Below are positions 1,740 through 54,510 of a stretch of 64,000 nucleotides of DNA, one piece after another. The stretch spans positions 2,914-66,913 of the forward strand of contig JAZKAJ010000006.1 of the NCBI GenBank assembly GCA_040389185.1, written 5' to 3'. The notes under the pieces were generated by a model. It searched no databases and was not told where the DNA came from. It was given only the letters and a program-made list of their open reading frames with translations. Source of the DNA: Patescibacteria group bacterium. Its GTDB lineage: Bacteria; Patescibacteriota; Minisyncoccia; Phycocordibacterales; CAIRYW01. Position numbers and translations under genes: made by a program. The stretch's first letter is position 1. Each line of letters opens with the position of its first letter.

Positions 1740-1747
1740 ACTTTATA

Positions 1748-2422: not shown

Positions 2423-2451
2423 AATTTATCTCAAACAAGCAATATATATAG

Positions 2452-2457
2452 TATAAT
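2452..2457 (+). promoter_or_regulatory. candidate -10 box (TATAAT) 8 nt upstream of the ATG at 2466; possible leaderless transcript
   Basis: tatatatagTATAATcaagtgtaATG in the 43-nt divergent intergenic region. No clear -35 or Shine-Dalgarno. Confidence 0.25.
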
Positions 2458-2465
2458 CAAGTGTA

Positions 2466-6400: not shown

Positions 6401-6404
6401 GCAT

Positions 6405-8413: not shown

Positions 8414-8422
8414 TTATTATCC

Positions 8423-9286: not shown

Positions 9287-9318
9287 TTACGATAACATTT
9301 AATTAACATTTTTACAAA

Positions 9319-10494: not shown

Positions 10495-11617
10495 CCGCTT
10501 TAGCAATGAGCGCTTCATAGCGCTTTGCAGTTATGCCTATATCATAGTGGCTTGCAGTCTCTATTGCGCACTGACCCATCTCAACTATTTTCAAATAGGA
10601 TCCGTCCATTTTAACGAGTACATCTCTCACACCTTCAGGAGTTCTGTTATCAATAAAATAACCGTTCTTACCTTCACTGATCATTCGGTCAGGACCAGCA
10701 GTTCTCGTTGAAAGGACTGGTAATCCACAAGCAAGAGCTTCAGCGTGCGCAATACCAAAGCCCTCTATATCTGAGGTTGAGATAAAAAAATCTGAGGCAA
10801 TATAATAGCGAAAAATATCCATTTGAGAACCCATCATAAACACCTTACCATTAAGACCGAGATCAACAATTCTTTTTGAAAGAGTTTCTCTTAATGTACC
10901 ATCGCCTAAAATAAGTAATTTATAATCAATATATTCTTTCACAAAAAGATCAAAACCTTCGATGAGTAGTTTCTGATTCTTTTGGGTAGTTAGTCTCCCC
11001 ACATTTATTATCAATCGATCACTATCTTTAAATCCAAGTTCTTTTTTTATTGCGGACTTATTATATGGTTTTATAGTTTCGTTAATTTTTTGAATATCAA
11101 TACCGTTTTGAATCACTTCAAATTTGCTTTCAGAAATGTTTTCCTGTTTTGCAGTAAATTCCTTTACAGTCTCTGAAACTGCCACAATTTTGTAAGTAAC
11201 AAAGGAAAGCCACTTATCAATAAAAATTTCAAAACGGGTCTTTTTGGTGTAGGTATTATGCTCGACAGTAATGATCTTGAATCCTAAAAATAGCTTTATG
11301 ATACGAGTTACGGTGTTAGAGAAAAACAAATGCGATACAACCACGTCTGGGTGAATCTTCCTTAGAGTTCGAAAAAGGGACAACCATCCTTTTATATCTT
11401 TGATGCCCTTCCAAGAAAGTTTTTTTATTTTGATATCTTGAGGAATCAGATCATAGAATGTCTTTTTGCCCTCAAAGGTGATTAAAGTTATCAGGCTATA
11501 GTCGAACTTTTGTCTATCAGCATGATTAAGTACATCCACAATAAGTTTTTGTGCGCCCGCAGCAGTAAAATCATTTATAACTATTACTACCTTTATTTTT
11601 CTATCTTGTTTTTCCAT
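10481..11617 (-). CDS. GT4-family glycosyltransferase
   Basis: Glycos_transf_1 C-terminal domain ([29 protein letters not shown]-x7-E region). Confidence 0.85.
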
Positions 11618-15643: not shown

Positions 15644-15689
15644 AGAGATTACTATACATTATGGCAATACTTATAACAAGTTCAAACCC

Positions 15690-16622
15690 TTAAACTAACT
15701 CAGCAGTAAAAGTTTTTTTACTTAATAATTCATTGTAGAGCATTGACCACTCTGCACTATATTTTTTAAATTCTTCAACTTCTTTTTCATCCCAGATTTT
15801 CTCTTTGTTATGCCATGGCTTTATGCCCTTTTTCTGCATCTTCTTGATCTCTTTTTCACTCAAGATCGGTGTCAATCCAAACTCTTTTGCCACATTCTTA
15901 TAGTAGCCATAATAATCCTGTCTTGCTTCATTCAATTTAAATATAAAGATCTTCTCTTTTGGAATTTCTTTCAACTGTTCCCAAATATCTTTATTCATCT
16001 TATTTCCCCACCACGCGATCTTTCCGACTCGAGTGAGACCATCCCATTCTCTATAGAATTCTCCGTTAGGCACCAGTCGTCCAAAGAGATAAAGCCAATA
16101 CCATTTCTGTGGAAAGTTAGGTTGAAACCCGAGTGCCATATCGACATTATCTCGCACATATTTGTGCTCAAAAAATCCCTTATTGTAAATCGATTGGACT
16201 GTAAACTTTGGATCATTGATCGCAAAGATGATTCGTTCAGGTCGAAGCAAAGTATTGAGTTCTACAATCCCATGTGAAAAGAAAGGGCTGATAACAAGCG
16301 CAATATCTCCTTTTTTCCAATCTTCAACAATGCCGTGCTTTATAAGCTTTATGATCCCTGCAGTATCAATCGGTAGTTTGTTGTATTTTATGTATCGATA
16401 GAAACATTCCGGCTCAAAATATCTTTCAGTGATTCCTGTTGCATTTGTATGCAAATTAAAAATATCTCCAAGCAAACGTGTGCCAGAGCGAGCCGCTAAA
16501 GTACAAAGAATTAACTTTTTCCCAGCCTGAAGTCCTTTTTCGTATTCCAAATCAACTGATTCAAGTATTTTGGAATCGAGACCTCCCCTATCCCATGAGA
16601 TCAAAAGCTTTCCTATTTTCAT
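15690..16622 (-). CDS. sulfotransferase-fold family protein
   Basis: 5'-PSB-like CTLAARSGTRLL and 3'-PB-like FAINDPKFTVQSIY motifs. 310 aa. Confidence 0.5.
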   Translation of the reverse strand: MKIGKLLISWDRGGLDSKILESVDLEYEKGLQAGKKLILCTLAARSGTRLLGDIFNLHTNATGITERYFEPECFYRYIKYNKLPIDTAGIIKLIKHGIVEDWKKGDIALVISPFFSHGIVELNTLLRPERIIFAINDPKFTVQSIYNKGFFEHKYVRDNVDMALGFQPNFPQKWYWLYLFGRLVPNGEFYREWDGLTRVGKIAWWGNKMNKDIWEQLKEIPKEKIFIFKLNEARQDYYGYYKNVAKEFGLTPILSEKEIKKMQKKGIKPWHNKEKIWDEKEVEEFKKYSAEWSMLYNELLSKKTFTAELV

Positions 16623-16629
16623 AATAAAA

Positions 16630-17760
16630 TTAGATGATGGTGTTTAGTATTAATCTTGCGTCTATGAGGGTCATATTTCTCGGATTATTCTTCATTCGTT
16701 CTATCGATGCTTCCTTGAGAATCAGATCGATATCCACCGGCTTCAATTTATCAAAATTCACCTTAAGTCCTATTGCATTAAAAAGTTCATCTAGTGTTTC
16801 TGATGCTTCTTTTGGGGTCTTAGTGCCTAGTATCTCGACGATCTCATCGATCGTCCCCTTTACATAACTTACTCCCCGAGGATCGTTATTATTTTCTTCA
16901 TTAACCTCGCTATTATATATCAAAATCTGAGGCAGAGTAAGAGATACTGCCTGGCCGTGCGGAATGTTGAAATGGGATGTAAACGGATAAGAAAGGGCGT
17001 GGCAAGCGGTAGTTTTTGAGATATTAATAGCCTTTCCTGCCAAGTGCGAACCTTTTGCTATAATTTCTCGAAGTTTTTGATCTGGTTTTAATACCACATC
17101 TTTCAAATTTGGATATAAAAGAGATAGAGCTTCTCTTGCATACTCTTTTGATTCTTCAGTTGAAGCAACAGACCACAATGATTCAATCGCCTGACAAAGT
17201 GCATCAGCACCTGCCTGTGCCGTAATCTCTGCATTTAAATTTGATGTGAGTAGTGGATCAACGATTGAAATAGTAGGTAAGATCTTTTGATCGGCAAGCG
17301 AATATTTTGTTGTATCAATATAAACCACTGCAAAATGTGTTGCCTCGCTTCCAGATCCAGATGTAGTAGGAATCGCAACAAGCGGCAAGCCATTTGTTGT
17401 TAATTTTTTTTCTCCTTTAATACAATCTTCCAAATCACCCATCTGAAACGAAAGTATATTTACAAGTTTTGCCATATCGATCACACTGCCACCTCCAACT
17501 GCAACAACTATATCAGGAACAAATTTTTTAAACTCTTCTATCCCCTTTTTTACATCTATAATATTTGGATTTGATTTGAAATCAGAGAATTGAAAAACAT
17601 TCTTACCTTGAAAGATAGACTCTAATTCTTTTTCTGCCCCCGATTCTTTGAACGAATTTTTGCCCGTTACAAGAAAGATCCTTTCGCTTTTTAAATTGCT
17701 TAGGACCTCTTCAAGTTTTTTAATGCTACCATTCCCAAAATATTCTACTTGTTTTTCCAT
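16630..17760 (-). CDS. iron-containing (group III) alcohol dehydrogenase; candidate phosphonoacetaldehyde reductase (FomC/PhpC-like)
   Basis: VAVGGGSVIDMAK and a metal-binding His-rich C-terminal half. Sits between Ppd and the Ppm fusion. Confidence 0.75.
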   Translation of the reverse strand: MEKQVEYFGNGSIKKLEEVLSNLKSERIFLVTGKNSFKESGAEKELESIFQGKNVFQFSDFKSNPNIIDVKKGIEEFKKFVPDIVVAVGGGSVIDMAKLVNILSFQMGDLEDCIKGEKKLTTNGLPLVAIPTTSGSGSEATHFAVVYIDTTKYSLADQKILPTISIVDPLLTSNLNAEITAQAGADALCQAIESLWSVASTEESKEYAREALSLLYPNLKDVVLKPDQKLREIIAKGSHLAGKAINISKTTACHALSYPFTSHFNIPHGQAVSLTLPQILIYNSEVNEENNNDPRGVSYVKGTIDEIVEILGTKTPKEASETLDELFNAIGLKVNFDKLKPVDIDLILKEASIERMKNNPRNMTLIDARLILNTII

Positions 17761-17762
17761 TT

Positions 17763-18893
17763 CTAATTATTCAAAAAATTCATAAAATCGTTCTTATTCT
17801 CTAAAGGAGTTCTTGTTGGTCTCCCAAGATCTTTTCTTGCACCAGGTGTTACAAGGATTTCCATAAGAATTGGTCCTTCAAGTTTTTCAATCTCTTTAAA
17901 ATTAACCTTGATGTCATCCTCTGTTTTTGAGCAAAAAACATGTTTGTAATTTGAAGCTTTTGCGATAGATCCAAAATCCATCACTGTTGCGGCTGTCGGT
18001 TGACCACCTACAGAATCGTGCACCTTATTATTAAAGACAATATGTATAAAATTCTTTGGTGCAACCTTGCCCGCAGTACCATATGCACCAAGATGCATTA
18101 TAGATGCGCCATCACCATCAAAACAATATACTTTTTTCGTAGGCTTCGCGATTGCAATACCAAGTGCGATCGAAGATGCGTGACCCATACCTCCAACAGT
18201 GAGAAAATCTCGGTCGTGTGTGTCATTATTTTTTACTCGAAGTTCAAACAGCTCTCTTGAGAGCTTACCTGTAGTACCGACAACGACAGCATCTCTTGAG
18301 ATCAATTCAATAACACTCTTCAATGCATCTTCGCGACTGATTGTGATATCACTTGAAATATTTTTCTTTGATCCTTCGTAGTTTGAAAATGTACCGCTCT
18401 TTACTACAAGTGCATACGGCGCTGAATTCTCTATCATTATTTTATATGCTTCTTGTACAGCAACCTTGGCCTCCTCATCATTATCAGGAAGAATTTTGTA
18501 CGGAACTCCCATTACCTCAAGCATTGAGAGCGTGATCTTTCCTTGTTTTTTATGCTGTGGTTCATCTGGAACCCCTTCTTCACCTCTCCATCCCACAAGC
18601 AAAAGAATGGGTACAGAATATATTTCTGGATCAGCAAGAGAGACCAGTGGGTTTAAGGTATTACCGAGACCAGAATTTTGAAGATAGACAAGGCCGATCT
18701 TTTTTGAGGCAAGATAATATCCCATTGCCAGAGCAACCGCATTCCCTTCGTTAGCAGCAATGATATGTTTATCTTCTGAAACATTATCATTCACAAACCC
18801 GCAGAAATCCTTCAAAAGCGAATCTGGCACACCAGCAAAAAATTCAATATTATTCTCTGCAAGCGCTTCAAAAAATGATTTGGGTGATACCAT
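17763..18893 (-). CDS. ppd: phosphonopyruvate decarboxylase (TPP-dependent)
   Basis: 376 aa, about the size of Ppd. N-terminal FAGVPDSLLKDF and the TPP-binding region GDGASIMHLGAYGT...NN. Next to PEP mutase. Confidence 0.8.
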   Translation of the reverse strand: MVSPKSFFEALAENNIEFFAGVPDSLLKDFCGFVNDNVSEDKHIIAANEGNAVALAMGYYLASKKIGLVYLQNSGLGNTLNPLVSLADPEIYSVPILLLVGWRGEEGVPDEPQHKKQGKITLSMLEVMGVPYKILPDNDEEAKVAVQEAYKIMIENSAPYALVVKSGTFSNYEGSKKNISSDITISREDALKSVIELISRDAVVVGTTGKLSRELFELRVKNNDTHDRDFLTVGGMGHASSIALGIAIAKPTKKVYCFDGDGASIMHLGAYGTAGKVAPKNFIHIVFNNKVHDSVGGQPTAATVMDFGSIAKASNYKHVFCSKTEDDIKVNFKEIEKLEGPILMEILVTPGARKDLGRPTRTPLENKNDFMNFLNN

Positions 18894-30389: not shown

Positions 30390-32504
30390 TTATTTGCCCA
30401 TCAAATATAATTGTTTGATCTGGTCTGAAGTAAGTGCGGTTGTATAGGCACGAACATCATCAATCTCGCCGTCAAAAAAATCTCCGAAACCGCCCCACAC
30501 ATTACATCCAATACTAAATGTGTCAGGATTATCAGTGACATAATTACCGACACTTGCATTTGTTTGAGAAACATTCTGTCCATTAATATATAAAATCTGT
30601 TTTGAACCGTCCCCGACAAAAGCAACATGACTCCATTTATTAAGTGGTGCAGCATCAGCATCAAATAAAATGTTCCCACTCGATTGTGTCCAACCTGCAA
30701 TATTATTACTGCCGTCAAATCCAAATTCAATAGTATCATTCTGTCCAAAAAAACTAGTATGATCATAATTACGTGGGTAAATCCAGCCAGCAATAGTAAA
30801 TGCAGTTGGATTATTAAAGATCACGGCGCTTGTTGTAATACACTGATTACCTGTATTAAAATCAAACGCCTGTCCGATAACTCCAGGTGCGACAGAATTT
30901 TTTTGATCTGCACCAGAAAGGGTCCCGTCATTATTTTCCCCGCTTCTGTCATAAATATCAGCCTCACTACCATTTATCCAATGTGTATCCTTACCATCAA
31001 ACGACCAGAGTCCCTGAAGTCCGTCTGTTATCCGAGAATTTCGTGAATCATTTATTGTTGTATTTCCTCCTGAATGATACAGATTGTTAATCTCATTTGC
31101 TGATAATACACGATCATAGACCCTCACTTCATCAAGATCGCCGTTCCAATAATATGCACTATCAAATCCAAAACCAATACGAGCACTCCCGTTTGCATTG
31201 AGACTTAGAGTTGAACCCGTTCCTCCACCACTTAATACTCCATTAACATATAATTTTATTTCGCCACTTGTTTTTTCACGCGTCACACATCCAGATACCC
31301 ACGAACCAGTATTAACAGTTGCAGTGCTACTAAATGTATAATCTCCTATATTTGAATTACCATCGCCAAACACAAGCTTGCCATTTGAGTCTACCCCAAA
31401 CCCAAAATCATTTGTGACACCGCCCACTTCTGTATCGAGGATTGCCATGCTCTGCCAATGATTAGTACCCGATCCAACAGAAGTAGTTTTGAACCATGAA
31501 CAAATAGTAAAGTCATCAGTCGCAGGTCGTGAAATATCTATATATTGATTGGCGCCATTAAATTCAAATGCTTTACCTATCTTTCCATCCACCGAACCAG
31601 GAGAATTGGATGATGTGCCATTATTTCCTCCGCCACTCACATCATCTACAGTGCTGCCTGAAATTGTGTCTGGTTCAAAAGACCACCAGCCCGTAAGACC
31701 GTCTTTGGTAGGTGAAGTCAGAATTGTTGCAACACTATCAGTATTGCTCGAACGGAGTGCCCTCACTTGACCTGCTGAAAGCGCGCGATTATATACTCGC
31801 ACATCATCAATTGAACCTGAAAAAAATCCAGTATCAGCAGTACAACTCGCTCCTCGCGCAAGTTGTACATAAATAGAATTACCCGCTGCCGCAAAAGTAG
31901 GCTGTGCTGTTGTCGCTTTTAAAACTCCATCAACATACAGCTTAAGTCCCTCTGTGGAATTCCAAGTGGTGACCACATGATGCCAAATATTAGTTGTGGG
32001 TGTATCCTGCTCAGTCGCATATTTTGCAGATCCATCAAAAGAAATTGCAGAAAATTTTCCATCTGTGACAGCAAGAAATGGGATACACCAACCCAAGCCG
32101 TTTTCACTATTTGAGATATGAACAATATTTCCATTTGTTTCTCCGGGGTCTATCTTTGCCCAAGCAGAAATGGTATACGGAGCATCGGCAATACCTAAAC
32201 TTTCGATACTAGAATTGCTTTCGGCATATTGGTCATTTCCATCAAAGGAAAGTGCTTCACCAAACCTTCCTGGTTCAATCCATGAAGGAGGGGTTGCGCC
32301 GTAAAGAGTTCCCGAAACACTATTTCCAGAATTGTCAGCAAGTGTTGTGCCCGTTCCCTCATCAAGTTTCCAATTAAGCATTAATCCTCTATTTGCAGTT
32401 CCCAAAATTTTAACCGCACCATATGCCGAAAGACCGATAAGTAAAAGTGCGACAATAATCGGAATTGGAGTGATTTTTTTTCTCATTGATATTTTATTCT
32501 GCAC
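30390..32504 (-). CDS. secreted protein with three tandem concanavalin-A-like lectin/glucanase (LamG_3) domains
   Basis: Signal/anchor helix PIPIIVALLLIGLSAYGAV. Three repeats, each ending in the LamG_3 signature (FSGSIDDVRVYNRALSAGQV; WNGDLDEVRVYDRVLSANEI; FDGEIDDVRAYTTALTSDQI). Confidence 0.8.
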   Translation of the reverse strand: MQNKISMRKKITPIPIIVALLLIGLSAYGAVKILGTANRGLMLNWKLDEGTGTTLADNSGNSVSGTLYGATPPSWIEPGRFGEALSFDGNDQYAESNSSIESLGIADAPYTISAWAKIDPGETNGNIVHISNSENGLGWCIPFLAVTDGKFSAISFDGSAKYATEQDTPTTNIWHHVVTTWNSTEGLKLYVDGVLKATTAQPTFAAAGNSIYVQLARGASCTADTGFFSGSIDDVRVYNRALSAGQVRALRSSNTDSVATILTSPTKDGLTGWWSFEPDTISGSTVDDVSGGGNNGTSSNSPGSVDGKIGKAFEFNGANQYIDISRPATDDFTICSWFKTTSVGSGTNHWQSMAILDTEVGGVTNDFGFGVDSNGKLVFGDGNSNIGDYTFSSTATVNTGSWVSGCVTREKTSGEIKLYVNGVLSGGGTGSTLSLNANGSARIGFGFDSAYYWNGDLDEVRVYDRVLSANEINNLYHSGGNTTINDSRNSRITDGLQGLWSFDGKDTHWINGSEADIYDRSGENNDGTLSGADQKNSVAPGVIGQAFDFNTGNQCITTSAVIFNNPTAFTIAGWIYPRNYDHTSFFGQNDTIEFGFDGSNNIAGWTQSSGNILFDADAAPLNKWSHVAFVGDGSKQILYINGQNVSQTNASVGNYVTDNPDTFSIGCNVWGGFGDFFDGEIDDVRAYTTALTSDQIKQLYLMGK

Positions 32505-35500
32505 TAGGCTCTGGCACTTGAGATGATGGATCAGGTGTTAATTGTTCAGGATTAGGTGCCGGATCTTCGATTGGAGTTGGATCAGGTGTTGGCGCGTTTT
32601 CAGTTGGCTCTACGACCTCAGATGTTGTAGACCCTTCGTCTAAAGAGTTTACATCTTGATTTGAAGATCCACTATCTGATTCAGATGATGAATTTTCATC
32701 TGGTATAGAAATCATGTCTGGAGTAGTCGATGCATCATTCTTTGGTACAGGTGTTACACCTGCAGAATGAACCATTTGAATGAATTCTGCTTCAGTCACA
32801 CAAGTATCTCCAACACAAAGCTTATGGGTTGTAAATTGATCCGTAAATCCTGAAAGTTTGTCAGCAATTTCTTTGACCGCTTTTACAAGAATTGCAGTTA
32901 TCTTCTCATATCGCACTCCATGAACTGTCGTTCCATCTGCTTCAAGAGTTACAAGTCTTGGATCAACCGCATTTACTTCTTCCGCAATAAATCCAAGCTG
33001 TTCACCGCTGTAATTTGGGTTTGATTGAAGTGCACCATTGAATTCTGGCTTATAGAAGAATGAAACGGGATTCAATTTCATAAGTTCAGTCAAACCAGAA
33101 TCATCGGTCAATGAATTTATATTATCCTTAAATCGAAGAGATGAAGAACTACAATCACTGTTTGATCCAACAACTAATTCTCCGCTTGAATTGATACAGA
33201 GATATGAAAGCTGACCTTCATCTGATACTGGCAAGTTTTCCATTCGAACACCTGTATTTTCAATCCCTCCTTCTCCATCATCTTCGCCATGGACTGTGAG
33301 AATTGAAAGTCCTGCGATTGATGCCGTGTATGATTCGACTGTTCCTTGTGATGCATCACCAGAAATTGGAAGGTCAACCCACGATACTGCGCCCGCATCT
33401 TCAGCAAATGTGAGAGCCCCCATAGAAAGATTATCTATACTTGTTACTCCTGTTGTACTGTTATAAAGGAATGATCCGTTACCTATTGAGACATCACCAG
33501 TATTGTAGGCAATCCCTCCATCAAAATCCGTCCATTGACTACCTGTGAAGAGCTGTCCGTGCTGATAAAGATTGCCGCCGAAGTTAATATCTCCGTTTAC
33601 ACCACCTGTAAAATCAGTCAGTGTAATATTTGCTGAATGATGAGTAGGGTGTATTTGAGGATTATTCTCATCATCAGGAAGAATATTCCATACATTACCC
33701 GAAGCGCCAGCACTGAGCTGTTCAATAATAATATTATTACCAACTCTAGTCGCGCTAAAATATCCACCATTATTAATAACATTTACAGTTGTATTAATAG
33801 TTTCAGAAAGTGTGTCCCCGATTGGTATTGGATATGCTCCTGAATTGGTGTCATTATCATCAAATTCATAAGCATGCATGCTATTTTGACTATCAAAAAG
33901 AAGGAACGCATCTCCATCTATTACTTCACCAATTGTAAGTGTTGCTGTTGCTTTAATTGCTCCAACATCAAGATTAAAAGCCGGATCGTTTGTGCCGATG
34001 CCAACATTGCCACCATTAAATAGTGCGGAATAATTTTTTGGAGCATTGAGCACTACTATACCGTTATCACCATCAGCCACAAACAAAACATCCTTGTATG
34101 CTGCGACCGCATATGAATCTCCATCAGTTGTTCCGTAACCAATAGTTATAGGATTATGAGGGTATGAAATATTTATCGCATAGACACTGTCTTCCGCACC
34201 ATCAGCAACATAAGCAATATTTCCAGAAATAGTGATTCTTGTATTGTAGCGCCAGTCACCAATAGAAGTGCTACCAACTTTAACCAAATTTTCTGGATCG
34301 GACGCATCAAATACAACAAACCCTTCTCCATCATCAGTATCACGGGTGGCATAGACATAATTTCCTTTTGTTGCAATACCGCCATCAAAATAATCTGCTT
34401 CGGAAGGGTATAATGACATTTGTTCAAAATCAGTTGGATCAGTAATATCTACTACCTCGATTTCAGTGTCTTCCTCTAGATATGCGTAGTGTCCATTATC
34501 TGAAATTGCGATTCGGTAAGCACTATCATCTGCTTGATAAGGTTCAGAGAAAAACACTGGATCACCCGAATGTCCATGACTGATAGCAGATACATTGAGA
34601 GCATAGAAATAACCGTTATTATCTGTCACGTACACTATTCCATTTTTAACTTGAATATCTTCAATTTGTGCAGGACCTTCGTCAGATACACCAAGTAGTA
34701 TTGGAGTCTGTGAGGTGTCATTCACATCAAGAACATAAACAGAATTCCCAGCCGCAACATAAGCAATATCACCCACAACACGAACGGCAGTTGGTGTTAC
34801 GTTATCTCCTTGGAAATCATAGTAGGTGAGAAGTGTCTCATCTACGGGATCGGTAATATCAAAAATATCGAGATGGTAACCATCGACAGAATAGAGTTTG
34901 TTGCCAGATACCACAAGATCCATAACCCCAGTTTGTACATCGTGATATCGAGTGATCTGTGAAAATCCAACACCTGCACTTCCACCAACAACATCGAGTC
35001 CAGCATGCGGTGTATTGGTACCTATACCTACATTGCCGTTAGTATAATCAATTCCATCTTCATTTGTATTCCACTTCGAATCACCACCGGCAATATCAAT
35101 CCATTCACCTTCATTATCAGTAGTATAGTACTGCATCGTCTTCGTATCTGTATTGAAAATAATTTGATTGTTGGTCGGAGATTCTATATTATCACGCTCC
35201 ATCGTAGTAAATGATTGCATATCACCTCCCGTACAGTTACCGAGATTTTGCATACAAACAGTATCAATGCCGCCCATTAGTGATTCAAGTGATGGCAATT
35301 GGTAGCCATAGTGCGCATCATCATCGCCAGATAGGAAAAAAGATGCGGATTCAGTATGTCCAGGATCACTCGTTGTGAATTTGATTCCTGTTGCATCTGT
35401 AATTTCACCCACATCAGCACCAATAGAAACAGAGACTGGTGCATTCGAAGCCATTATCGTAAGTCCAGGCGCAGTTCCCGTCTCTTCAGATCTCATGAGT

Positions 35501-38500
35501 GAGACATTACTGATAGATCCAGAAAAGGCACCTCCTATTGGCATGAACTCAACAGTAAACGAATCGGCAGACCCATTAAGAGTTGAAGAGAAGCTAACAT
35601 CCCCATTACCTGCTGAATAAGTATTACAGGTGTCTTCTGAAACACTTCCAATGCATGCTTCTATCTCACCCTCACCTTCACCTATGGTAAAGCTGAGTCT
35701 ATACTCTCCCGCATCGAGACCATCACCTTGAGAAAGATTTGAGCTCTCTCCCACTTCTGTATGAAAGGTCGCAACCGCACCACTTCCAGATGTTGCAGTA
35801 AGACTGTACCCTGCTCCGTCAGTGTATCCATCACCCGCTGTAAGAATGGTGTTGCCATTGAATCCTCGTATCGCACCTGAAGGAACATCCTGAGACAAAT
35901 AGCCACCACTTCCTGTACCCCCTGAAACAACTTCATTCATATCACTACCGAAACTTGCTGTATTTGAAATAATCGATATCCCAACAATTGCACCATCTCC
36001 ATCTACAGAATCAACACTCAAAGTTGCGTCTCCATTAAATCCGGATACAGTAATCGTATCCCCTTCGGTATATCCGGAACCGGCAGTCGAAACACTGAAG
36101 CTATCCGGCACCCCACTAACAGAAAGAATCTCCATTGTTGCATCTCCATTTCCACCGTCAACATGCACAATTTCATCTGGAACATATCCTGAACCACCAT
36201 CTGTCAATTCGATAAAACTAGTAATTGGGCCTGATGAATCAGTCGCCTCATCAGCCACAACATCATTGTCATCATAGGACCAGCCATCACCCAACATCCA
36301 ACCAACAGCGTTTCCATCAAATGATCCATTTGTGAGTTCTTCCACATTGACACTTTCTGAATTAGAAGTCTGCCGGATCGTCAAATTTGCATTACTCAAC
36401 TCGGTCGTGTTGATACCCACCTGACCTAAATGACCAAGTGTCATTGAAGTATGATCATCATCAGCACCAAAAACGAGATCACCGTCACTGTTTAAAAATA
36501 CCCCCATTTCTTTATCAGTTCCGGCCAAGTCATTTTGAAATGTAAGCCCCCACGGATTACTGTCAGTCGTATGAATATTCAAAAGTGATGGATACCCTCC
36601 CGCAAATTCTCCTGAACCATCACCAAAAATTTCAAGTGTAGATCCGGGAGTAGTGGTGCCAATTCCAACATTACCAGATAAAAAATTAATTCCACTTTCA
36701 TTACCGTTCCATGCTGAATCACCCGACCCGCTACCGAAATCGGTCCACTCATCACCATCACCACTATTTCTGAATTGCATTGTGCCATTGTTATTGCGAA
36801 TACCAAAACCACTCTCGCCGACAGCCGTGCCAAAATTGAAATAGCGTCTATGAAATTCATCATCAGTGCCACCAATGAGTACATCTCCTCCCGATGTTTT
36901 GAGGGCGAGCTCAGGATTTTGATCTGTACTCAAGGTAAGTGTATGAATCCCCCCATCACCTGCCGCAAGTATGATTGTACTTCCCGAAAGTGCTACTGCA
37001 TCTGAATCACTTTCACTGTTGTAATTGGCAAGTTGCGTTATATTTGCCGGATCGCTCACATCAAAAATGTAGAGACTATCTGGAGCTCCATCAGCAACAT
37101 ACGCATAATTATTTTTAATCACAACAGATCCGTTATAGCGATAAGATCCAATATTCGCATATCCTGCAAGAGTAATGTTTCCATGATTAATACTATATAC
37201 AACAAAACTTTGCGTTGCATCATTCACATCATTTGTCGTATAGAGATAGCTACCAGAAATTGCAGGGCGCCCTGTCAGATTACCGTCGAGCGCAAAATCT
37301 GTAATGAAAGTTACGCTGTGGTTGGAGCCGATAGCGTATGAAAAAATATCTGACCCTGATGTTACATATGCATAACCGTCATCAGAGAGTGCAATACCTT
37401 GCGCAGATGCTTCGCTTTGACTCAGATCAACGACTGTAACCGGGGCATCAATTGTAGAAATATCGATATCAACAAATCCTTCATTGGTTGCCGCATATAG
37501 ATCATTTCCCTTTACAGCAATATCATTCACATTAAAATTACCGTGCCATACAGCAAGAGAAATAGGGTCCGATGCGTCCTCGAGGCTAAATATTTCGATA
37601 TCAGTTCCCTCAGCAGCAAACAGGTAATCCCCATTACTCGATATTGAAAGACGGCTCGCTCCATCACTCGTAGGAGCGACGGAGCTTACAGCGGTCAAAT
37701 TGCTCGGGTCACCAATACTTGTGATATCTATAGAATTTCCACCATTGCCGATTGAATACGCATAATTACCAAGCATGACAACATCCTTTGTATCACCAAG
37801 ATCAGACTTAGTACCTAAAAGCTCAAGCGCGAGCGCTCCTCCAGTACTCGCATTGACGGAAAGTTTTGCATCATTTGAAGTGCTACCTATACCCACAAGA
37901 CCTTGTGGTAAAAAGTTTATTCCCGATCCGACATCTGTCCATTGTGATGAAGTAATACCCTCGGTACAATTGCCGAGATATTTCATACAAAATGTATCGT
38001 TGCCGTCATCCACTGTTAAAAGAGAGGGTAAGACATACTCATATCGAGAATTATTATCATCTGGAAGATAGAGTGATGCTGCGTGAGAATTTCCACTACT
38101 ATCGATTGTTTTTATTAAAAAACCATGCTGACCTTCTTCACTGTTACCTTCTTCATTATCTATCCCCAAAGAAAGAGATGTACGATCGTTTGGAGCAAGG
38201 AATGTTAACCCTTGGACTTCTCGACTCATAACCGAAACATTATCAATTGTTCCATCAAAATCATTTGATGGACTAAAACTTATTTTTTGATTATCGTTTT
38301 TATGCCATTGACCACTGAAAGATACATCACCTTCCCCAGCATCAATTGTTTCGCAATGCCCGCCACCGAGACACACAAAAACACTCCCGTTTGAACCAGT
38401 GATAGTAAATGAAACATCATATGTAGCCCCCTCATTCAAATCACCTGTCTGATAAAGTGTTTTATTAACATCCTCATCATAATCAGCAGGAGCAAAGACT

Positions 38501-39777
38501 GCTGCGCTTTCATCATCATTCCACCCCAAGCCCAAATGCCATTCTGATATACCATAATTAAATCCTCCATCTGCGATTTGGTCCTCAGCGCCCGGATCCC
38601 GCTGTTGGATCGTCAACGTTCCTCTATCACCCACACGTTCACCACTTCGAGCATAATTAGTTGCATCACCTACGGTAGCCATTCCTGTAATATCAAGAGT
38701 ATCATTTACCGCAAGACCTCCAGTGTCACTACGGAGCGCACCATTCCTGCCCACTATAAAATCCGCCTTGTTGCTTGGTAACGAGTCTTCATCATACACT
38801 CGCAAAAGATCAACATCTCCCGCACTCCAAATCGCTGTCATATCACCATCCGCATAAAATCCGCTCCCTTCATTATTTTTTGTACCCTCTATCCAAATAC
38901 CACTACTACCTGTATCTTCTGGATCTGGATCAGGATTCGGATTCCAATGTTGCGCCTGACCATAGAGACCTGTTGGACCGTAGTGAATACCTCCAGTGTT
39001 TATTGCAGGATTACCAAAAAACATTGATCCATTCGTTAGCGTGTCTCCAGCAATCGAGAGAGAATAGTTTTTATCAGGCGCAACACCAATACCAACAGTC
39101 CCATATGTCTCATCGACTGCAAGTGGAATACCATTTGGCATTGTTTGTGAATCAACAGTGAGCCAATCAACATTATTATTATCTGAAAAAGAAGTTTCAG
39201 TAGTATCTATATATGCAGTAAATGAGGTACCTCGACTATATTCATCCTCTGTACCATCTGCACCAATGCCAGAATGAAAAACTCTGTAACCATCCGCACC
39301 ATCTACAGGATCCCAAGAAATAGCAAAATTATAATTTCCCTCAACTTGATCCAAGTTTACTTTTAAAAATTTTTCTGTGTATGTACTTGAGTACAACCGC
39401 AGACCATCTCCAATGTTTTTATAGGAGTAAACACGATAGGCATTAGTAAATGGATAGTGGATGTCAAAAGATTCTCGTCCATAACCCCCGTCCTCACTTG
39501 GAGACATCTCAACACTGACAGATGTAGGGGCCGCAATCTCATGAGCGAGCGTACCAATGTAAGTGACTCCATTTAGAGAAAAAAGGTTGCCAGGCTCAGC
39601 AATTGAGACCGTACAATTCTCATTTGTCGGGGCACATTCAGGGTTCAGTGTCTCGCCTTGAGAATATGGTTCACCACTCCATGTTGCAAAAGCATTTTGT
39701 GAAAGAGAAAAAGCACAGACAATAAAAAAAACAAGCAAAACACCCTGTGCTCCATTGCTTTTAAATATCTGTTTCAT
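32494..39777 (-). CDS. giant (2427 aa) secreted surface fibre protein: two LVIVD beta-propeller modules, LamG-like modules, tail-fibre-like W..D..GNVGIGT motifs, and a C-terminal intramolecular-chaperone (peptidase S74-like) self-cleavage domain
   Basis: Signal peptide MKQIFKSNGAQGVLLVFFIVCAFSLSQNAFA. LVIVD-type repeats (YVADGAPDSLYIFDVSDPANITQLANY; HLDIFDITDPVDETLLTYY; IAYVADGAEDSVYAINISYP). Internal duplicated modules ending FDGTIDNVSVM / FSGSISNVSLM. IMC motif SSLRFKDNINSL...LMKLNPVSFFYKPEF...GFIAEEVNAVDPRLV at about 32850..33150. Acidic/Pro-rich C-terminal tail. Confidence 0.8.
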   Translation of the reverse strand: MKQIFKSNGAQGVLLVFFIVCAFSLSQNAFATWSGEPYSQGETLNPECAPTNENCTVSIAEPGNLFSLNGVTYIGTLAHEIAAPTSVSVEMSPSEDGGYGRESFDIHYPFTNAYRVYSYKNIGDGLRLYSSTYTEKFLKVNLDQVEGNYNFAISWDPVDGADGYRVFHSGIGADGTEDEYSRGTSFTAYIDTTETSFSDNNNVDWLTVDSQTMPNGIPLAVDETYGTVGIGVAPDKNYSLSIAGDTLTNGSMFFGNPAINTGGIHYGPTGLYGQAQHWNPNPDPDPEDTGSSGIWIEGTKNNEGSGFYADGDMTAIWSAGDVDLLRVYDEDSLPSNKADFIVGRNGALRSDTGGLAVNDTLDITGMATVGDATNYARSGERVGDRGTLTIQQRDPGAEDQIADGGFNYGISEWHLGLGWNDDESAAVFAPADYDEDVNKTLYQTGDLNEGATYDVSFTITGSNGSVFVCLGGGHCETIDAGEGDVSFSGQWHKNDNQKISFSPSNDFDGTIDNVSVMSREVQGLTFLAPNDRTSLSLGIDNEEGNSEEGQHGFLIKTIDSSGNSHAASLYLPDDNNSRYEYVLPSLLTVDDGNDTFCMKYLGNCTEGITSSQWTDVGSGINFLPQGLVGIGSTSNDAKLSVNASTGGALALELLGTKSDLGDTKDVVMLGNYAYSIGNGGNSIDITSIGDPSNLTAVSSVAPTSDGASRLSISSNGDYLFAAEGTDIEIFSLEDASDPISLAVWHGNFNVNDIAVKGNDLYAATNEGFVDIDISTIDAPVTVVDLSQSEASAQGIALSDDGYAYVTSGSDIFSYAIGSNHSVTFITDFALDGNLTGRPAISGSYLYTTNDVNDATQSFVVYSINHGNITLAGYANIGSYRYNGSVVIKNNYAYVADGAPDSLYIFDVSDPANITQLANYNSESDSDAVALSGSTIILAAGDGGIHTLTLSTDQNPELALKTSGGDVLIGGTDDEFHRRYFNFGTAVGESGFGIRNNNGTMQFRNSGDGDEWTDFGSGSGDSAWNGNESGINFLSGNVGIGTTTPGSTLEIFGDGSGEFAGGYPSLLNIHTTDSNPWGLTFQNDLAGTDKEMGVFLNSDGDLVFGADDDHTSMTLGHLGQVGINTTELSNANLTIRQTSNSESVNVEELTNGSFDGNAVGWMLGDGWSYDDNDVVADEATDSSGPITSFIELTDGGSGYVPDEIVHVDGGNGDATMEILSVSGVPDSFSVSTAGSGYTEGDTITVSGFNGDATLSVDSVDGDGAIVGISIISNTASFGSDMNEVVSGGTGSGGYLSQDVPSGAIRGFNGNTILTAGDGYTDGAGYSLTATSGSGAVATFHTEVGESSNLSQGDGLDAGEYRLSFTIGEGEGEIEACIGSVSEDTCNTYSAGNGDVSFSSTLNGSADSFTVEFMPIGGAFSGSISNVSLMRSEETGTAPGLTIMASNAPVSVSIGADVGEITDATGIKFTTSDPGHTESASFFLSGDDDAHYGYQLPSLESLMGGIDTVCMQNLGNCTGGDMQSFTTMERDNIESPTNNQIIFNTDTKTMQYYTTDNEGEWIDIAGGDSKWNTNEDGIDYTNGNVGIGTNTPHAGLDVVGGSAGVGFSQITRYHDVQTGVMDLVVSGNKLYSVDGYHLDIFDITDPVDETLLTYYDFQGDNVTPTAVRVVGDIAYVAAGNSVYVLDVNDTSQTPILLGVSDEGPAQIEDIQVKNGIVYVTDNNGYFYALNVSAISHGHSGDPVFFSEPYQADDSAYRIAISDNGHYAYLEEDTEIEVVDITDPTDFEQMSLYPSEADYFDGGIATKGNYVYATRDTDDGEGFVVFDASDPENLVKVGSTSIGDWRYNTRITISGNIAYVADGAEDSVYAINISYPHNPITIGYGTTDGDSYAVAAYKDVLFVADGDNGIVVLNAPKNYSALFNGGNVGIGTNDPAFNLDVGAIKATATLTIGEVIDGDAFLLFDSQNSMHAYEFDDNDTNSGAYPIPIGDTLSETINTTVNVINNGGYFSATRVGNNIIIEQLSAGASGNVWNILPDDENNPQIHPTHHSANITLTDFTGGVNGDINFGGNLYQHGQLFTGSQWTDFDGGIAYNTGDVSIGNGSFLYNSTTGVTSIDNLSMGALTFAEDAGAVSWVDLPISGDASQGTVESYTASIAGLSILTVHGEDDGEGGIENTGVRMENLPVSDEGQLSYLCINSSGELVVGSNSDCSSSSLRFKDNINSLTDDSGLTELMKLNPVSFFYKPEFNGALQSNPNYSGEQLGFIAEEVNAVDPRLVTLEADGTTVHGVRYEKITAILVKAVKEIADKLSGFTDQFTTHKLCVGDTCVTEAEFIQMVHSAGVTPVPKNDASTTPDMISIPDENSSSESDSGSSNQDVNSLDEGSTTSEVVEPTENAPTPDPTPIEDPAPNPEQLTPDPSSQVPEPSAE

Positions 39778-41794: not shown

Positions 41795-42913
41795 CTAGAG
41801 CAGTGCGAGTACCCTTCGAGTGATCGATCCGACATATCCTACAATAGGTGCAATGGTATGCGCAATTTGAAATTTAATTACCGCCGCACGCGTCGCAGAG
41901 CCAAAATATCTTGTTTCATTGCCGATAGATCCCGCTCCACTTTGTGATACCACGAATCCGTGGTTATTTAGCCATACCTGAAGAGCATATACATCGTCAC
42001 CAGTAATTCCCAAATAAAGGTCTCTTGAGAGCAATAATCCACTGCTACCATTTGCAGGAATTATATTTAGATCATCAATCGCATCGACAATAGGTTGAGG
42101 TAATTCAATACTTTCATTTTTTGCATCAATAAATACACTTCGAAAGTTTTTTACCAAGAATTTAGATAACTTATCTTCATCTGTGGTTTGTTTTAATATT
42201 TGAGTTAGATCATCAATTTTGTCTTCTAGAGATAATTCTTTTGTAAGTCGAGGAAATGGATCGACAGGAGTACCTGAGTTATCGTGTATCTCGAAATGTA
42301 AATGCGCTGGTCCACCCGCCGCATTACCAGTATCACCTACATACCCTATTAAGTCACCGGCTTCCAAGACAAGTCCAGATACTACCCCTTCACCAATATG
42401 ATCTAGGTGCATATATACAAAAGTTTCTCCTCCAGGGTTTGCAGTGTATACATAGTTACCCTCTGTCTCGCCCACTCCCGTACGAATCACTACCGCTTCT
42501 GTCGGTGAAACAATTGGCGTACCTAAAACAGCCATAATATCCTCACCCTCATGTGTTCGCCCATCAGACCGAGGATCACCAAAATTCGGTGATATGTCAC
42601 TTATTCCTACGCCAAAAAGCACTGGCATAGAGACTGTTTTATCGGAAGTATCTGGAAGGGCACTTATTTTCTTTTGAAGTTCGCTTGATTGTCCACGATA
42701 TTGTCTTATTTGAATTTGTCTGGTAGTTGAAGATTCGGCAGAACCATCAGTATTATATAGAGTCCTAAAATAACTATACCGAGTCGATGTTGATGTGGCA
42801 GCGAACGCAAGAGTTGGCAATATAAAAATTGCCATCAGAATAACGAGTTTAAATGTAGAATATTTCATTGTTTGTTTAGTTAAAAAATTAGACAGCAGAG
42901 GTGATAGAACCAA
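41795..42913 (-). CDS. M23-family metallopeptidase with a C-terminal peptidoglycan-binding domain; start probably Met at 42868 (MKYSTF)
   Basis: HEGEDI (HxxxD) and HLHFEIH (HxH) M23 motifs. C-terminal PG_binding_1 (DDVYALQVWLNNHGF...RYFGSATRAAVIKFQ). Confidence 0.85.
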   Translation of the reverse strand: MVLSPLLSNFLTKQTMKYSTFKLVILMAIFILPTLAFAATSTSTRYSYFRTLYNTDGSAESSTTRQIQIRQYRGQSSELQKKISALPDTSDKTVSMPVLFGVGISDISPNFGDPRSDGRTHEGEDIMAVLGTPIVSPTEAVVIRTGVGETEGNYVYTANPGGETFVYMHLDHIGEGVVSGLVLEAGDLIGYVGDTGNAAGGPAHLHFEIHDNSGTPVDPFPRLTKELSLEDKIDDLTQILKQTTDEDKLSKFLVKNFRSVFIDAKNESIELPQPIVDAIDDLNIIPANGSSGLLLSRDLYLGITGDDVYALQVWLNNHGFVVSQSGAGSIGNETRYFGSATRAAVIKFQIAHTIAPIVGYVGSITRRVLALL

Positions 42914-42955
42914 TCCATCTATATTATAGAAGACGGGTTGGTATCGATATGATTA

Positions 42956-43001
42956 CTAAATAAGCCGGCACCAAAGGGCCGGCTTATTTAGTAATTTTTT
43001 T
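42956..43001 (+). terminator. intrinsic-terminator-like hairpin (13-bp perfect stem) plus T-run; oriented for the + strand, just downstream of the minus-strand gene 43000..44178
   Basis: ctaaataagccggc-accaaagg-gccggcttatttag, then gtaattttttt. Confidence 0.45.
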
Positions 43002-44178
43002 ACAGCGCATCTGATGCATCCTCCGCCTTGCGTTCCGCTTTTCTTGCCAAGCTCTCAGCATCGGCATAATCTTCATCATCATATTTTATTCTCGCATTAT
43101 TAAAGAATTCCGTTGCATCATTAAAAAGACCCTTTGCATCACTTGTATCTCGATTCTTTTTGTCAGCGAGAGATATATCAGATCTTGCAGCACTCATCGC
43201 GCTCTTTGCTTTATTTATGGCATTTAGAGCATCTGTCTCATCACCATTATTATTAATAGCATCTTCGGCATCACTACCTTTGTCTTCTGCTTCTTGAGCG
43301 AGATTATTGGCATCATCATAATTAAGTGCATCTAATTCATCTTTTGCATTCTGTAATATAGTTCGAGCGCTCTTAAGGAGACTTTTTGCTTCTGATACAT
43401 CCTTCCCACCATCATCTGCATTATTTATTTTGTCTTCAATATCATCAAGCCCATGATCAACTTCATTAATTCTATTGTCGACACTATCACCTTTGGTTTT
43501 ACCGCCAGCAGCTTTGAATGCATTCACAGCATCACTAAAACTATTATCCGCATATGATTTTGCTTTTGAATAATCACCACTTATATATGATTTCATTGCC
43601 TTAAGTATTTCTTCTCTTGCGGAGACCAAGTCCTTATTGGACTGATCTACGTTTACGCCACCATGTCCAGAATCTACAACTTCATCTTCCGAATCTTGAA
43701 GCTGTTTGATAGCCCGAGTAAGTGCACTTTTTGCATCAGAAGAAGAACCACTTGATGTTGTAGTTGTAACGACAGGCGTAGCTAAAGTTTGTGACGAAGA
43801 TGAAGGTCCTGCCACTATAATATTATATTTTTGTCGTGAGAGTGGGCCGAAGTATCCAGTCGATGCAAGTCCATTATCTTTTTGCCATTTTTTGATCGTT
43901 GCAACTGTTAATGACTTCAGTGTGTCTGTTTCCTTACCAGGAGAGCCTGCACCAGTACTTGATATTATATATCCAGAGCCATTTAAGAATTTTTGAAGAC
44001 ATCTGACATCTTCTCCCTCAGCGTTAAGTGAGAGGTCTCTTGTGAATCCACAAGAAGCAGCATAAGTAGTATTCGCAGCAAGAATGGCAAGTGCAGATAT
44101 TCCGAGAATAAATAAATGTTTTGAGTATTTCATAAAAGTTCTATTTGTTATAGATACAATTATATTACAAAATGACAA
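43000..44178 (-). CDS. secreted protein: N-terminal peptidoglycan-binding domain plus a long D/E/K-rich helical region; start probably Met at 44133 (MKYSKHLF)
   Basis: Signal peptide, PG_binding_1 (EDVRCLQKFLNGSGY...GYFGPLSRQKY), then about 250 aa of low-complexity charged helical sequence. Confidence 0.6.
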   Translation of the reverse strand: MSFCNIIVSITNRTFMKYSKHLFILGISALAILAANTTYAASCGFTRDLSLNAEGEDVRCLQKFLNGSGYIISSTGAGSPGKETDTLKSLTVATIKKWQKDNGLASTGYFGPLSRQKYNIIVAGPSSSSQTLATPVVTTTTSSGSSSDAKSALTRAIKQLQDSEDEVVDSGHGGVNVDQSNKDLVSAREEILKAMKSYISGDYSKAKSYADNSFSDAVNAFKAAGGKTKGDSVDNRINEVDHGLDDIEDKINNADDGGKDVSEAKSLLKSARTILQNAKDELDALNYDDANNLAQEAEDKGSDAEDAINNNGDETDALNAINKAKSAMSAARSDISLADKKNRDTSDAKGLFNDATEFFNNARIKYDDEDYADAESLARKAERKAEDASDAL

Positions 44179-53316: not shown

Positions 53317-54510
53317 TCATGCTTCAGATAAGAAGGTTGCAGTCACTGTGGTTATTGTGCTCATAGTAACCATACATGTTCCAGTCCCTGAACAGCCACC
53401 TCCAGTCCAACCAAGGAAAGTGGCACCTATACCTGGAGACGCAGTAAGTGTAACAATACTACCTGACGCAAACGAATGGGAACAAGTCGAGCCACAGGCA
53501 ATACCTGCCGGGGTACTTGTGATCATCCCATCTCCCACAAGGATAACATTTAAAGCATAAGTATTAAGAGTGAACGTCGCGGTGACCGTTGTGTCATTAT
53601 CAAGTGTTACAACACAAGGACCAGTACCTGAACATGCACCAGACCAACCAGAGAATGTTGAGCCAGCATCAGCAGATGCGGTAAGTGTCACAGTGGTGCC
53701 TGATGAATATGAAGAAGAACAAGTCGAGCCGCAAGCAATACCCGCGGGAGTACTCATGACCACCCCATTTCCAGACCCAGATTTAGCAACGGTGAATGAA
53801 TATGTAGGTATTGGAAGTGTTGTCACATCGAGTATTGATGAATATTCGGAAACATTACCTGCAACATCTTTTGCCTTAATCTGGTAACGATAGAGTGTAT
53901 CAGCACTCAGGTCTGCATCATCAAATGAGGAGGTAGTTGGATTACCAATCTCAATAAAATCAGTACACCCATCACCTTCACATCGCTCAAGAATGTATTT
54001 TAAAAATCCTGAACCTCCTACATCAGTAGAATCCGACCAATCCAAAGACAGAGTTGTCTCTGTAATATTTGATGATTCGAGATCAGTCGGTATCGTAGGT
54101 GCTGTTCTATCTGCATGACTGCGAATGATTGTGCCCGACCTCACCTTTGGCAATATTAGACCAATCGTAGTCGTACTCATATTAGAGATCTGTAGAGGAG
54201 TGGATAGATGAGCTCGAGTAAGCGGACCAACAATTCCTATAGGAACAATTCCGTTCGCCCTTTGAAAATCAATAACAGCCGTTTTTGTTAGTGGTCCAAA
54301 ATATCCTGTCGCTGTTGGATACGAGAAAAAACCTAAACTCTTTAAGATATTTTGCAGAGTCAAAACCTCACTTCCACTTAATCCAAGATAAAGACTGTGA
54401 GTAATAGATAGTGATGGAACAGAAGATAATACTTCCGCATTTAGCGTTGTAGAAATACTAAAAATACAAAAGAATGCTAAGACAACCTTCGAAATACTTA
54501 TTTTCTTCAT
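53317..54510 (-). CDS. secreted cell-wall-associated protein: PG_binding_1 + fibronectin-III-like + two divergent InlB-B-repeat-like Cys-containing modules
   Basis: Signal peptide, LYLGLSGSEVLTLQNILKSLGF...GYFGPLTKTAVIDFQ (PG-binding), an FN3-like segment, then two repeats TPAGIACGSTCS.S..SG..VTLTAS...G.TF.GW.G.CSGTG.C.VT. Confidence 0.7.
   Translation of the reverse strand: MKKISISKVVLAFFCIFSISTTLNAEVLSSVPSLSITHSLYLGLSGSEVLTLQNILKSLGFFSYPTATGYFGPLTKTAVIDFQRANGIVPIGIVGPLTRAHLSTPLQISNMSTTTIGLILPKVRSGTIIRSHADRTAPTIPTDLESSNITETTLSLDWSDSTDVGGSGFLKYILERCEGDGCTDFIEIGNPTTSSFDDADLSADTLYRYQIKAKDVAGNVSEYSSILDVTTLPIPTYSFTVAKSGSGNGVVMSTPAGIACGSTCSSSYSSGTTVTLTASADAGSTFSGWSGACSGTGPCVVTLDNDTTVTATFTLNTYALNVILVGDGMITSTPAGIACGSTCSHSFASGSIVTLTASPGIGATFLGWTGGGCSGTGTCMVTMSTITTVTATFLSEA
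53380..53780. repeat. two near-identical DNA repeats of about 150 bp (period about 240 bp) encoding the InlB-B-like modules; locally GC-rich
   Basis: gaacaagtcgagccacaggcaatacctgccggggtacttgtgat versus gaacaagtcgagccgcaagcaatacccgcgggagtactcatgac, plus flanking similarity. Confidence 0.6.

Follow-up and report, generated by a model that had tools for sequence, protein, structure and literature searches.

In Bdellovibrio, 21 mosaic adhesive trimer (MAT) fibres with signal peptides are encoded on the chromosome (Caulton et al. 2024, PMC10769870). All of them possess, behind the signal peptide, a conserved beta-rich N-terminal domain of about 130 aa, which is thought to dock on the cell, and 13 of the 21 end in a Peptidase_S74 (S74) domain with the motif SDxxxK. 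A capping-loop consensus, V-G-G/N-pi-x-x-P-x-x-x-L, was described for MAT fibres, and self-cleavage was shown experimentally for Bd3182, which is cut at S782 and stays uncleaved as an S782A mutant (PMC10769870). We analysed a stretch of 64,000 nucleotides (nt), referred to as the window, from contig JAZKAJ010000006.1 of a Patescibacteria group bacterium. It contains a gene for a protein of 2427 amino acids (aa), the giant fibre, which is probably a chromosomal, mosaic, phage-fibre-like adhesin of the MAT kind in a Paceibacteria-like member of the Patescibacteria, exported by Sec, self-maturing and trimeric.

The giant fibre resembles MAT fibres in its chromosomal location, a predicted signal peptide, a conserved N-terminal domain of its own, a mosaic body, motifs similar to the capping loops and a C-terminal S74 domain with an S-x4-K dyad. 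Both hosts, Bdellovibrio and Patescibacteria, must attach to other bacteria. The first-pass annotation of the window, made from the sequence alone, had regarded this architecture as known from phage receptor-binding proteins and not from a chromosomal surface protein, a view contradicted by the S74-ending chromosomal fibres of Bdellovibrio (PMC10769870). Several traits set the giant fibre apart from MAT fibres. It is about 2.4 times longer than the roughly 1000-aa MAT proteins, contains two inserted LVIVD beta-propellers and two beta-sandwiches, has the dyad within SSxRFK instead of SDxxxK and continues behind the chaperone with a Cys hairpin and an acidic tail. Its host is a member of the Patescibacteria and not a proteobacterial predator, and its gene has a fixed downstream LamG partner together with two membrane-protein genes.

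Three further groups of proteins are comparable. The C-terminal chaperones of phage proteins (K1F endosialidase, 3GW6; T5 pb1, 4UW8; S16 gp37, 6F45; 8JOV) agree with the giant fibre in Pfam family, dyad and fold, whereas the giant fibre lies outside a virion gene module, has predicted Sec export and carries extra modules past the chaperone. The intramolecular chaperone auto-processing (ICA) domain of MyRF (7DC3; PMC3742443) was the best structural match and is, like that of the giant fibre, a non-viral S74 domain followed by a further segment. MyRF is a eukaryotic membrane-bound transcription factor whose cleavage frees a DNA-binding trimer (PMC3742443); the giant fibre differs in having neither a transmembrane (TM) segment nor a DNA-binding domain. 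Other tail fiber domain-containing proteins of Patescibacteria, known from database annotation, have the S74 domain in common with the giant fibre, and subsets of them have the Cys hairpin, the N-terminal head or a LamG neighbour. Among the relatives listed, most are 400-800 aa long and devoid of propellers. An NCBI entry identical to the 2427-aa protein is titled 'MAG: tail fiber domain-containing protein [Patescibacteria group bacterium]', thus the core annotation is already public. The S74-driven maturation of trimers is established biology as well. What stands out here is the occurrence in Patescibacteria, the giant layout with its propellers, the extension past the chaperone and a conserved four-gene cassette.

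Pfam recognised Peptidase_S74 (PF13884) at aa 2212-2276 (nt 32950-33144) with 37.2 bits, compared to a gathering score of 22, and an E value of 3.7e-9. The sequence S2212-S-L-R-F-K2217 aligns with the catalytic SDxxxK motif, placing the Ser-x4-Lys dyad at nt 33142-33144 (Ser2212) and nt 33127-33129 (Lys2217). Among 52 diverse relatives aligned with MAFFT, no more than four positions were invariant, namely S2212, K2217 and, within the motif GFIAEE, the G and the A, and S-S-x-R-F-K was kept in all five close homologues. An AlphaFold2 model of aa 1918-2346 reached a predicted local distance difference test (pLDDT) score above 90 exactly over the S74 part. In Foldseek searches this model matched the MyRF ICA domain 7dc3 (E 5e-5, probability 1.0, target-normalised TM-score 0.60, 26% identity) and the K1F endosialidase chaperone 3gw6 (E 0.1). 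A viral structure library yielded 85 matches at E<=0.001, mainly S74 or intramolecular chaperone (IMC) proteins of tail fibres. The IMC domain with a Ser-Lys dyad proposed in the first-pass annotation was thereby confirmed; profile match and dyad are both present and the S74 domain is therefore considered real.

Its position had to be corrected. The domain had been assigned to the last 100 or so residues, but the cleavage serine lies 216 aa before the C-terminus. In the 105 of 128 retrieved proteins in which the motif is present, the median distance is 149 aa. Past the chaperone, the chain continues with a long helix, a beta-hairpin that C2321 and C2326 close, a short helix and a tail of 82 aa. 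The CxxxxC hairpin also occurs in 27 of the 105 relatives, chiefly in the closest ones from the Candidate Phyla Radiation (CPR), and tails of the acidic S/P/E/D/T type are present in all members of the giant family. The region ahead of the chaperone showed a mean identity of 70% across the giant family. Its pLDDT stayed below 50-65 in the monomer model, as expected for a strand-interleaved trimer that is modelled as a single chain. To our knowledge, all characterised S74 domains are trimeric, including those of K1F endosialidase, T5 pb1, MyRF and Bd3182, and since every studied S74 domain works as a trimer, the Ser-Lys chaperone/protease points to a fibre that is most likely trimeric. From the earlier prediction of a trimeric, self-processing surface fibre, Sec export and S74 maturation were thus supported by homology, and the trimer stands as the most likely state.

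The gene itself is a real open reading frame (ORF) located as first annotated, and the proposed Sec signal without sortase or TM anchor was also substantiated. A 19-mer scan found a single hydrophobic stretch in the protein, aa 7-32, ending in AFA|TW. Neither an LPXTG or NPXTG motif nor a second hydrophobic or C-terminal TM segment was detected in the 2427 residues. The protein has a net charge of -272. Only two Pfam families, LVIVD and Peptidase_S74, were significant; Pfam revealed no known wall-binding domain in the mature part and no glycosidase or lyase domain in the protein, and NCBIfam gave no match.

The body of the giant fibre is a mosaic. Repeats of the form W.D.G..GNVGIGT..P...L.V, reported earlier as common in tail-fibre proteins, were recovered as six loops of the form G.VGIG..(P)...L (aa 226, 626, 1035, 1118, 1581 and 1923), which bracket the globular inserts. 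They resemble the MAT capping-loop consensus, with three sites fitting fully and three having the proline missing or shifted. A profile built from the CPR relatives matched the MAT crystal structures 8ond (E 2.4e-17), 8ojn, 8oml, 8ol4 and 8on4 as well as the putative tail fibre protein 8jov (E 2e-19). Of the inserts, both blocks of LVIVD repeats were verified. Pfam assigned LVIVD (PF08309) in three stretches with an E value of 2.6e-14, and in an AlphaFold2 model of aa 386-985 the first block formed a seven-bladed propeller with a pLDDT of about 90, next to a sandwich at 65-78. With Foldseek this propeller matched WD40-type propellers at E values of about 1e-10. The second propeller was recognised through duplication alone. 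Masked-segment BLAST revealed a large internal duplication of aa 445-976 and aa 1351-1935 with 29-37% identity and a further one of aa 999-1056 and aa 1547-1602. The duplicated unit consists of a small beta-sandwich, a linker with a Cys pair and the LVIVD propeller. The two modules of about 120 aa that had been labelled LamG-like did not live up to this name: Laminin_G gave no match at E<=1 for the whole giant fibre or at E<=5 for eight isolated modules, and true LamG_3 domains reside in the next gene. The sandwich modules produced sub-threshold matches only, to GalBD_like (E 0.015), CBM_6 (E 0.12) and CshA_repeat (E 0.007). Three GGSGY repeats of about 45 aa lie inside the second sandwich. 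A match to phrog_460, 'head closure Hc2' (E 9e-6), fell on these low-complexity repeats and was dismissed as evidence for phage origin.

When the first 400 aa were used for an exhaustive search with HMMER, 227 matches were returned, and this region resolved into three modules. The head, covering aa 12-85 with the motif GETLNPxCxPxxxNCxV, is N-terminal in every other protein that bears it, P0035 and P0094 among them. Thirteen of the 18 head-bearing proteins end in S74, while their middles vary between YadA_head, PA14, LVIVD and beta-roll. The parts of aa 136-400 each recur separately in many proteins, the beta domain in up to 25 copies.

Only five full-length homologues with 52-59% identity were found, plus the protein P0129, and the giant LVIVD layout is common to no more than 6-7 proteins. 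The order of modules differs among the homologues P0001-P0006. With this differing order and the varied middles behind the head, the giant family shows the mosaic module exchange typical of MAT fibres. The C-terminal region has a far wider distribution, with more than 200 relatives, of which those with a named source are mostly Patescibacteria proteins titled 'tail fiber domain-containing protein'. Parcubacteria, Nomurabacteria, Taylorbacteria, Kaiserbacteria, Saccharibacteria, Shapirobacteria and Minisyncoccia were among the source groups, and the relatives combine the region with Bact_surface_Ig-like, YadA_head, collagen, LamG_3 or PA14 domains. GTDB genomes with relatives belonged to Nomurabacteria, Taylorbacteria, Minisyncoccia and Paceibacterota, along with a few metagenome-assembled genomes from outside the CPR. 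The literature searched contained no paper describing S74 fibres in Patescibacteria.

Some members of the wider family deserve mention. P0002, P0003, P0004 and P0005, of which P0002, P0004 and P0005 stem from GROS21 groundwater sets, contain at about aa 1250-1430 an extra domain of about 190 aa (…AMGQTFTPTHTG…) that separates the second sandwich from the last propeller. The protein from the window is without this domain, which is a further sign of module shuffling. Other giant S74 fibre ORFs, some of them even larger, occur in further Paceibacteria. The one in L009 (positions 506-11119, Ca. Taylorbacteria) exceeds 3772 aa, has 22 capping loops and is followed by two LamG genes, that in L010 (2-10453, Minisyncoccia) exceeds 3643 aa, and a third in L011 (4187 onward) has 2384 aa. 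In L005, a small S74 protein of 465 aa (1836-3233) is encoded beside a Por_Secre_tail-matching protein, 2.5 kb upstream of the giant homologue. The fibre homologue in L008 (1708-6970) is present as two ORFs of 1249 and 664 aa, one for the N-terminal and one for the C-terminal part, probably owing to a frameshift or an error of assembly, or because the gene exists there in a shorter, split form.

The giant fibre gene is the first gene of a conserved cassette. It is followed by the genes for a protein with three LamG domains, a 187-aa protein and a 393-aa protein (partner genes 1 to 3; Table 1), and this cassette was found in the same order in L001/L002, L003/L004, L005 and L008 (Ca. Nomurabacteria). 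It is flanked by different genes in different loci (MscL and UDG; SecA and NUDIX; IPT and a desaturase) and is kept across five distinct chromosomal contexts. A LamG_3 gene follows the fibre gene in L001-L005 and L008 as well, and in L006 and L009 (Ca. Taylorbacteria) the S74 gene has two LamG_3 genes behind it. Counterparts of partner genes 2 and 3 occupy the same position in L001-L005 and L008, with identities of 55-66% and 38-49%, respectively. As listed, partner gene 1 starts at a GTG codon and thereby shares 11 nt with the fibre gene; the ATG at 32486, 8 nt past the fibre stop, is more likely the start. Its assignment to TafC, a subunit of the haloarchaeal Tat fimbria, was rejected, as NCBIfam scored 108 bits against a cutoff of 410 and the likeness is at the level of the LamG domains only. 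The 393-aa protein has three 'G(Y)AWxxxxGWINF' repeats at aa 30-110 without a family match. Its N-terminal repeat region matches, with 44% identity, a 610-aa CarboxypepD_reg protein that adjoins another S74 gene in L007. A VirD4/TraG/HerA-like coupling ATPase of 589 aa, matching phrog_5156 of unknown function (E 4e-56), is encoded directly downstream of the cassette in the window. In L001/L002 a homologue with 56-59% identity is situated about 5 kb upstream of the cassette, and in L003-L005 and L008 no homologue occurs within 10 kb; because of this inconsistent linkage, the ATPase was not counted as part of the cassette.

A plausible course of fibre formation can be proposed from these features. 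Sec would export the 2427-aa precursor, and the signal peptide would be removed after AFA31. Outside the cell the S74 chaperone, whose domain, dyad and fold are supported by homology, would bring three chains into register, in line with the mode of action of all S74 domains studied. Ser2212 and Lys2217 would then cut the chain, freeing a fragment of 216 aa with the chaperone, the Cys hairpin and the acidic tail, and baring the distal end of a fibre of about 2180 aa. The mature chain would comprise the Cys-loop head, short shaft segments capped by the six loops and two side-mounted cassettes of sandwich and seven-bladed LVIVD propeller, which are the likely ligand-binding parts. The fibre lacks a membrane or sortase anchor and probably docks via its N-terminal head onto an element of the cell surface. 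By synteny, the downstream genes are the best partner candidates, with the two membrane-anchored proteins as putative anchors and the triple-LamG protein as a possible lectin-like co-adhesin. The fibre would likely serve in attachment to a host cell or to a polysaccharide.

An origin from a phage has to be weighed against this adhesin. S74 domains are typical of phage fibres, the NCBI name includes 'tail fiber', and PHROG matches were obtained for the LamG neighbour and the VirD4-like ATPase, all of which would suit a phage or prophage tail-fibre gene or a cryptic remnant within the contig. The genomic surroundings do not. The scan covered 51 of the larger ORFs in the window, located between 2.4 and 61 kb, and included Pfam for about 50 of them. 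All neighbours with matches belonged to cellular families, and no integrase, capsid, portal, terminase, tail tube or other virion gene was present among the scanned ORFs, which bears out the impression from the first-pass annotation that no phage structural or integrase genes are nearby. The GC content over the fibre gene (0.40-0.43) rises only slightly above that of its surroundings (0.35-0.40), without a sharp island boundary. The related loci examined were likewise free of phage structural and integrase genes, and there the cassette recurs between differing housekeeping genes; this largely settles the prophage alternative and marks the cassette as the functional unit. IMG/VR contained no close relative of the giant fibre, and the best phage matches were 27-42% identical and confined to S74. 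Phage fibres, so far as known, assemble in the cytoplasm, whereas the giant fibre has a Sec-type signal peptide. A phage gene is thus highly improbable. The signal peptide equally argues against a fibre of an extracellular contractile injection system (eCIS) or a tailocin. The term Peptidase_S74 occurs in papers cataloguing receptor-binding domains of eCIS tail fibres. No sheath, tube, baseplate or spike gene was found in the window or in any related locus, so that this origin is barely conceivable.

Other explanations concern the state of the protein. Its mass is mostly globular, with two propellers, two sandwiches and repeat domains, the shaft segments are short and the match to MAT shafts is marginal. 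It might accordingly be a monomeric multi-domain adhesin that forms no trimeric fibre and whose S74 domain is only a self-cleaving protease or vestigial. The strict conservation of the catalytic dyad and the GFIAEE core, the trimeric state of the characterised S74 domains and the capping loops around each globular insert speak against a monomer, which we judge very unlikely; loops in this position are expected if the inserts are mounted on a three-fold shaft. A product that is shed, through S74 cleavage or for want of an anchor, and not bound to the cell, such as a soluble lectin, a glycan-binding or -degrading factor or matrix or S-layer-like material, would agree with the missing TM segment, LPXTG motif and wall-binding domain, with the very acidic nature of the protein and with the many phage S74 proteins that are depolymerases. 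Against it, Pfam detected no glycosidase or lyase domain. The N-terminal head is conserved family-wide, a parallel to the MAT fibres and their presumed docking head, and the linkage to two genes for membrane-anchored proteins is constant. Shedding is therefore considered rather unlikely.

Some observations weigh against the interpretation as a MAT-like trimeric adhesin. The shaft profile of the giant family itself reached Bd2133 only at an E value of 0.013, the single sequence gave no match, and pairwise PDB searches with the giant fibre produced weak matches only. For this reason the protein is termed MAT-like and not a proven MAT member. The signal peptide is a heuristic call, and trimerisation, cleavage and surface location are properties that we infer. 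Seven-bladed propellers are unusual within a trimeric fibre, and here they were modelled as monomers. The roles proposed for the partner genes derive from synteny, and two of the three partners have no detectable family.

If the adhesin reading holds, a Paceibacteria-like lineage would possess a large and mosaic family of surface proteins that resemble phage fibres and mature by themselves, with fixed partner genes, and the MAT-fibre concept would extend from a proteobacterial predator to ultra-small Patescibacteria. Cultivated Patescibacteria live attached to other microbes, and how they find and hold their hosts is little understood beyond type IV pili (10.1101/2024.11.25.624915). The fibre family and its partner genes are concrete candidates for determinants of host specificity and form a testable gene set. 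As a tentative and rather doubtful extension, the four-gene cassette could encode a dedicated host-attachment organelle of Paceibacteria-type episymbionts. In such an organelle the fibre would be docked by its Cys-loop head on the two membrane proteins, the LamG lectin would act as tip or co-adhesin, and the propeller and sandwich modules would set host specificity. If true, it would be a cellular counterpart of the host-range determinants of phages.

Table 1 Features of the giant fibre, its cassette and other loci in the window (positions in nt of the 64,000-nt stretch)
Feature	Residues (aa)	Position (nt)	Strand	Remarks
Giant fibre gene	2427 aa	32494..39777	minus	ATG start
Sec-type signal peptide	1-31	39685..39777	minus	K-rich n-region, hydrophobic core, AFA|TW
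N-terminal head with Cys loop (GETLNPECAPTNENCTVSI)	32-135	39373..39684	minus	Kept in all 6 family members
Repeat-type beta domain (about aa 110-200) and shaft module	136-400	38578..39372	minus	Holds the first capping loop (aa 226)
Beta-sandwich module 1	401-530	38188..38577	minus	7-8 strands, pLDDT 65-78
LVIVD seven-bladed beta-propeller 1	626-985	36823..37902	minus	Pfam LVIVD, AlphaFold2, Foldseek; capping loops on both sides
Shaft module with two capping loops (aa 1035, 1118)	986-1135	36373..36822	minus	Weak profile match to Bdellovibrio Bd2133 (8ond), E 0.013
Beta-sandwich module 2	1136-1440	35458..36372	minus	Interrupted by three GGSGY repeats of about 45 aa
GGSGY repeats	1136-1345	35743..36372	minus	
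LVIVD beta-propeller 2	1581-1935	33973..35037	minus	phmmer against propeller 1, E 3.6e-29; duplication
Pre-chaperone region	1936-2211	33145..33972	minus	Presumed trimeric distal part of the fibre; Cys pair 2194/2209
Peptidase_S74 chaperone/protease	2212-2345	32743..33144	minus	Pfam, dyad, fold; includes trailing helix, Cys hairpin C2321-C2326 and short helix
Low-complexity S/P/E/D/T tail	2346-2427	32497..32742	minus	82 aa, net charge -18
Partner gene 1	704 aa	30390..32504	minus	Three Laminin_G_3 domains (Pfam 3.5e-80), N-terminal signal or anchor
Partner gene 2	187 aa	29769..30332	minus	Single TM (aa 45-71), external domain of about 110 aa; no family match
Partner gene 3	393 aa	28581..29762	minus	Signal peptide, three GWINF repeats, beta-rich domain, C-terminal TM and basic tail; no family match
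VirD4/TraG/HerA-like coupling ATPase	589 aa	26772..28541	minus	
Mur-ligase paralogues	444 and 451 aa	21546..25348	minus	
Phosphonate genes		14294..18893	minus	
Wall-associated secreted proteins		41795..44178 and 53317..54510	minus	

The window as a whole contained no tRNA genes, and a scan for promoters and terminators remained at chance level (43 found vs 44 expected and 11 vs 8.9, respectively). The families identified among the neighbouring ORFs included glycosyltransferases, a flippase, a teichoic-type glycerophosphotransferase, a phosphonate cluster with phosphoenolpyruvate (PEP) mutase, two Mur ligases, ApbE, DoxX, M23 peptidases, a two-component system, a sigma factor and ABC exporters. 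The region around the fibre gene is rich in envelope functions. The two Mur-ligase paralogues flank an RibD_C/DHFR-like gene and a flavin mononucleotide reductase gene. The wall-associated secreted proteins combine M23 with PG_binding_1, PG_binding_1 with DUF4398, and PG_binding_1 with fn3 and InlB B-repeats. Among GT4 glycosyltransferases, the phosphonate genes encode a PEP mutase-cytidylyltransferase fusion, a decarboxylase dependent on thiamine pyrophosphate and an Fe-alcohol dehydrogenase, which suggests that envelope glycans are decorated with phosphonates.

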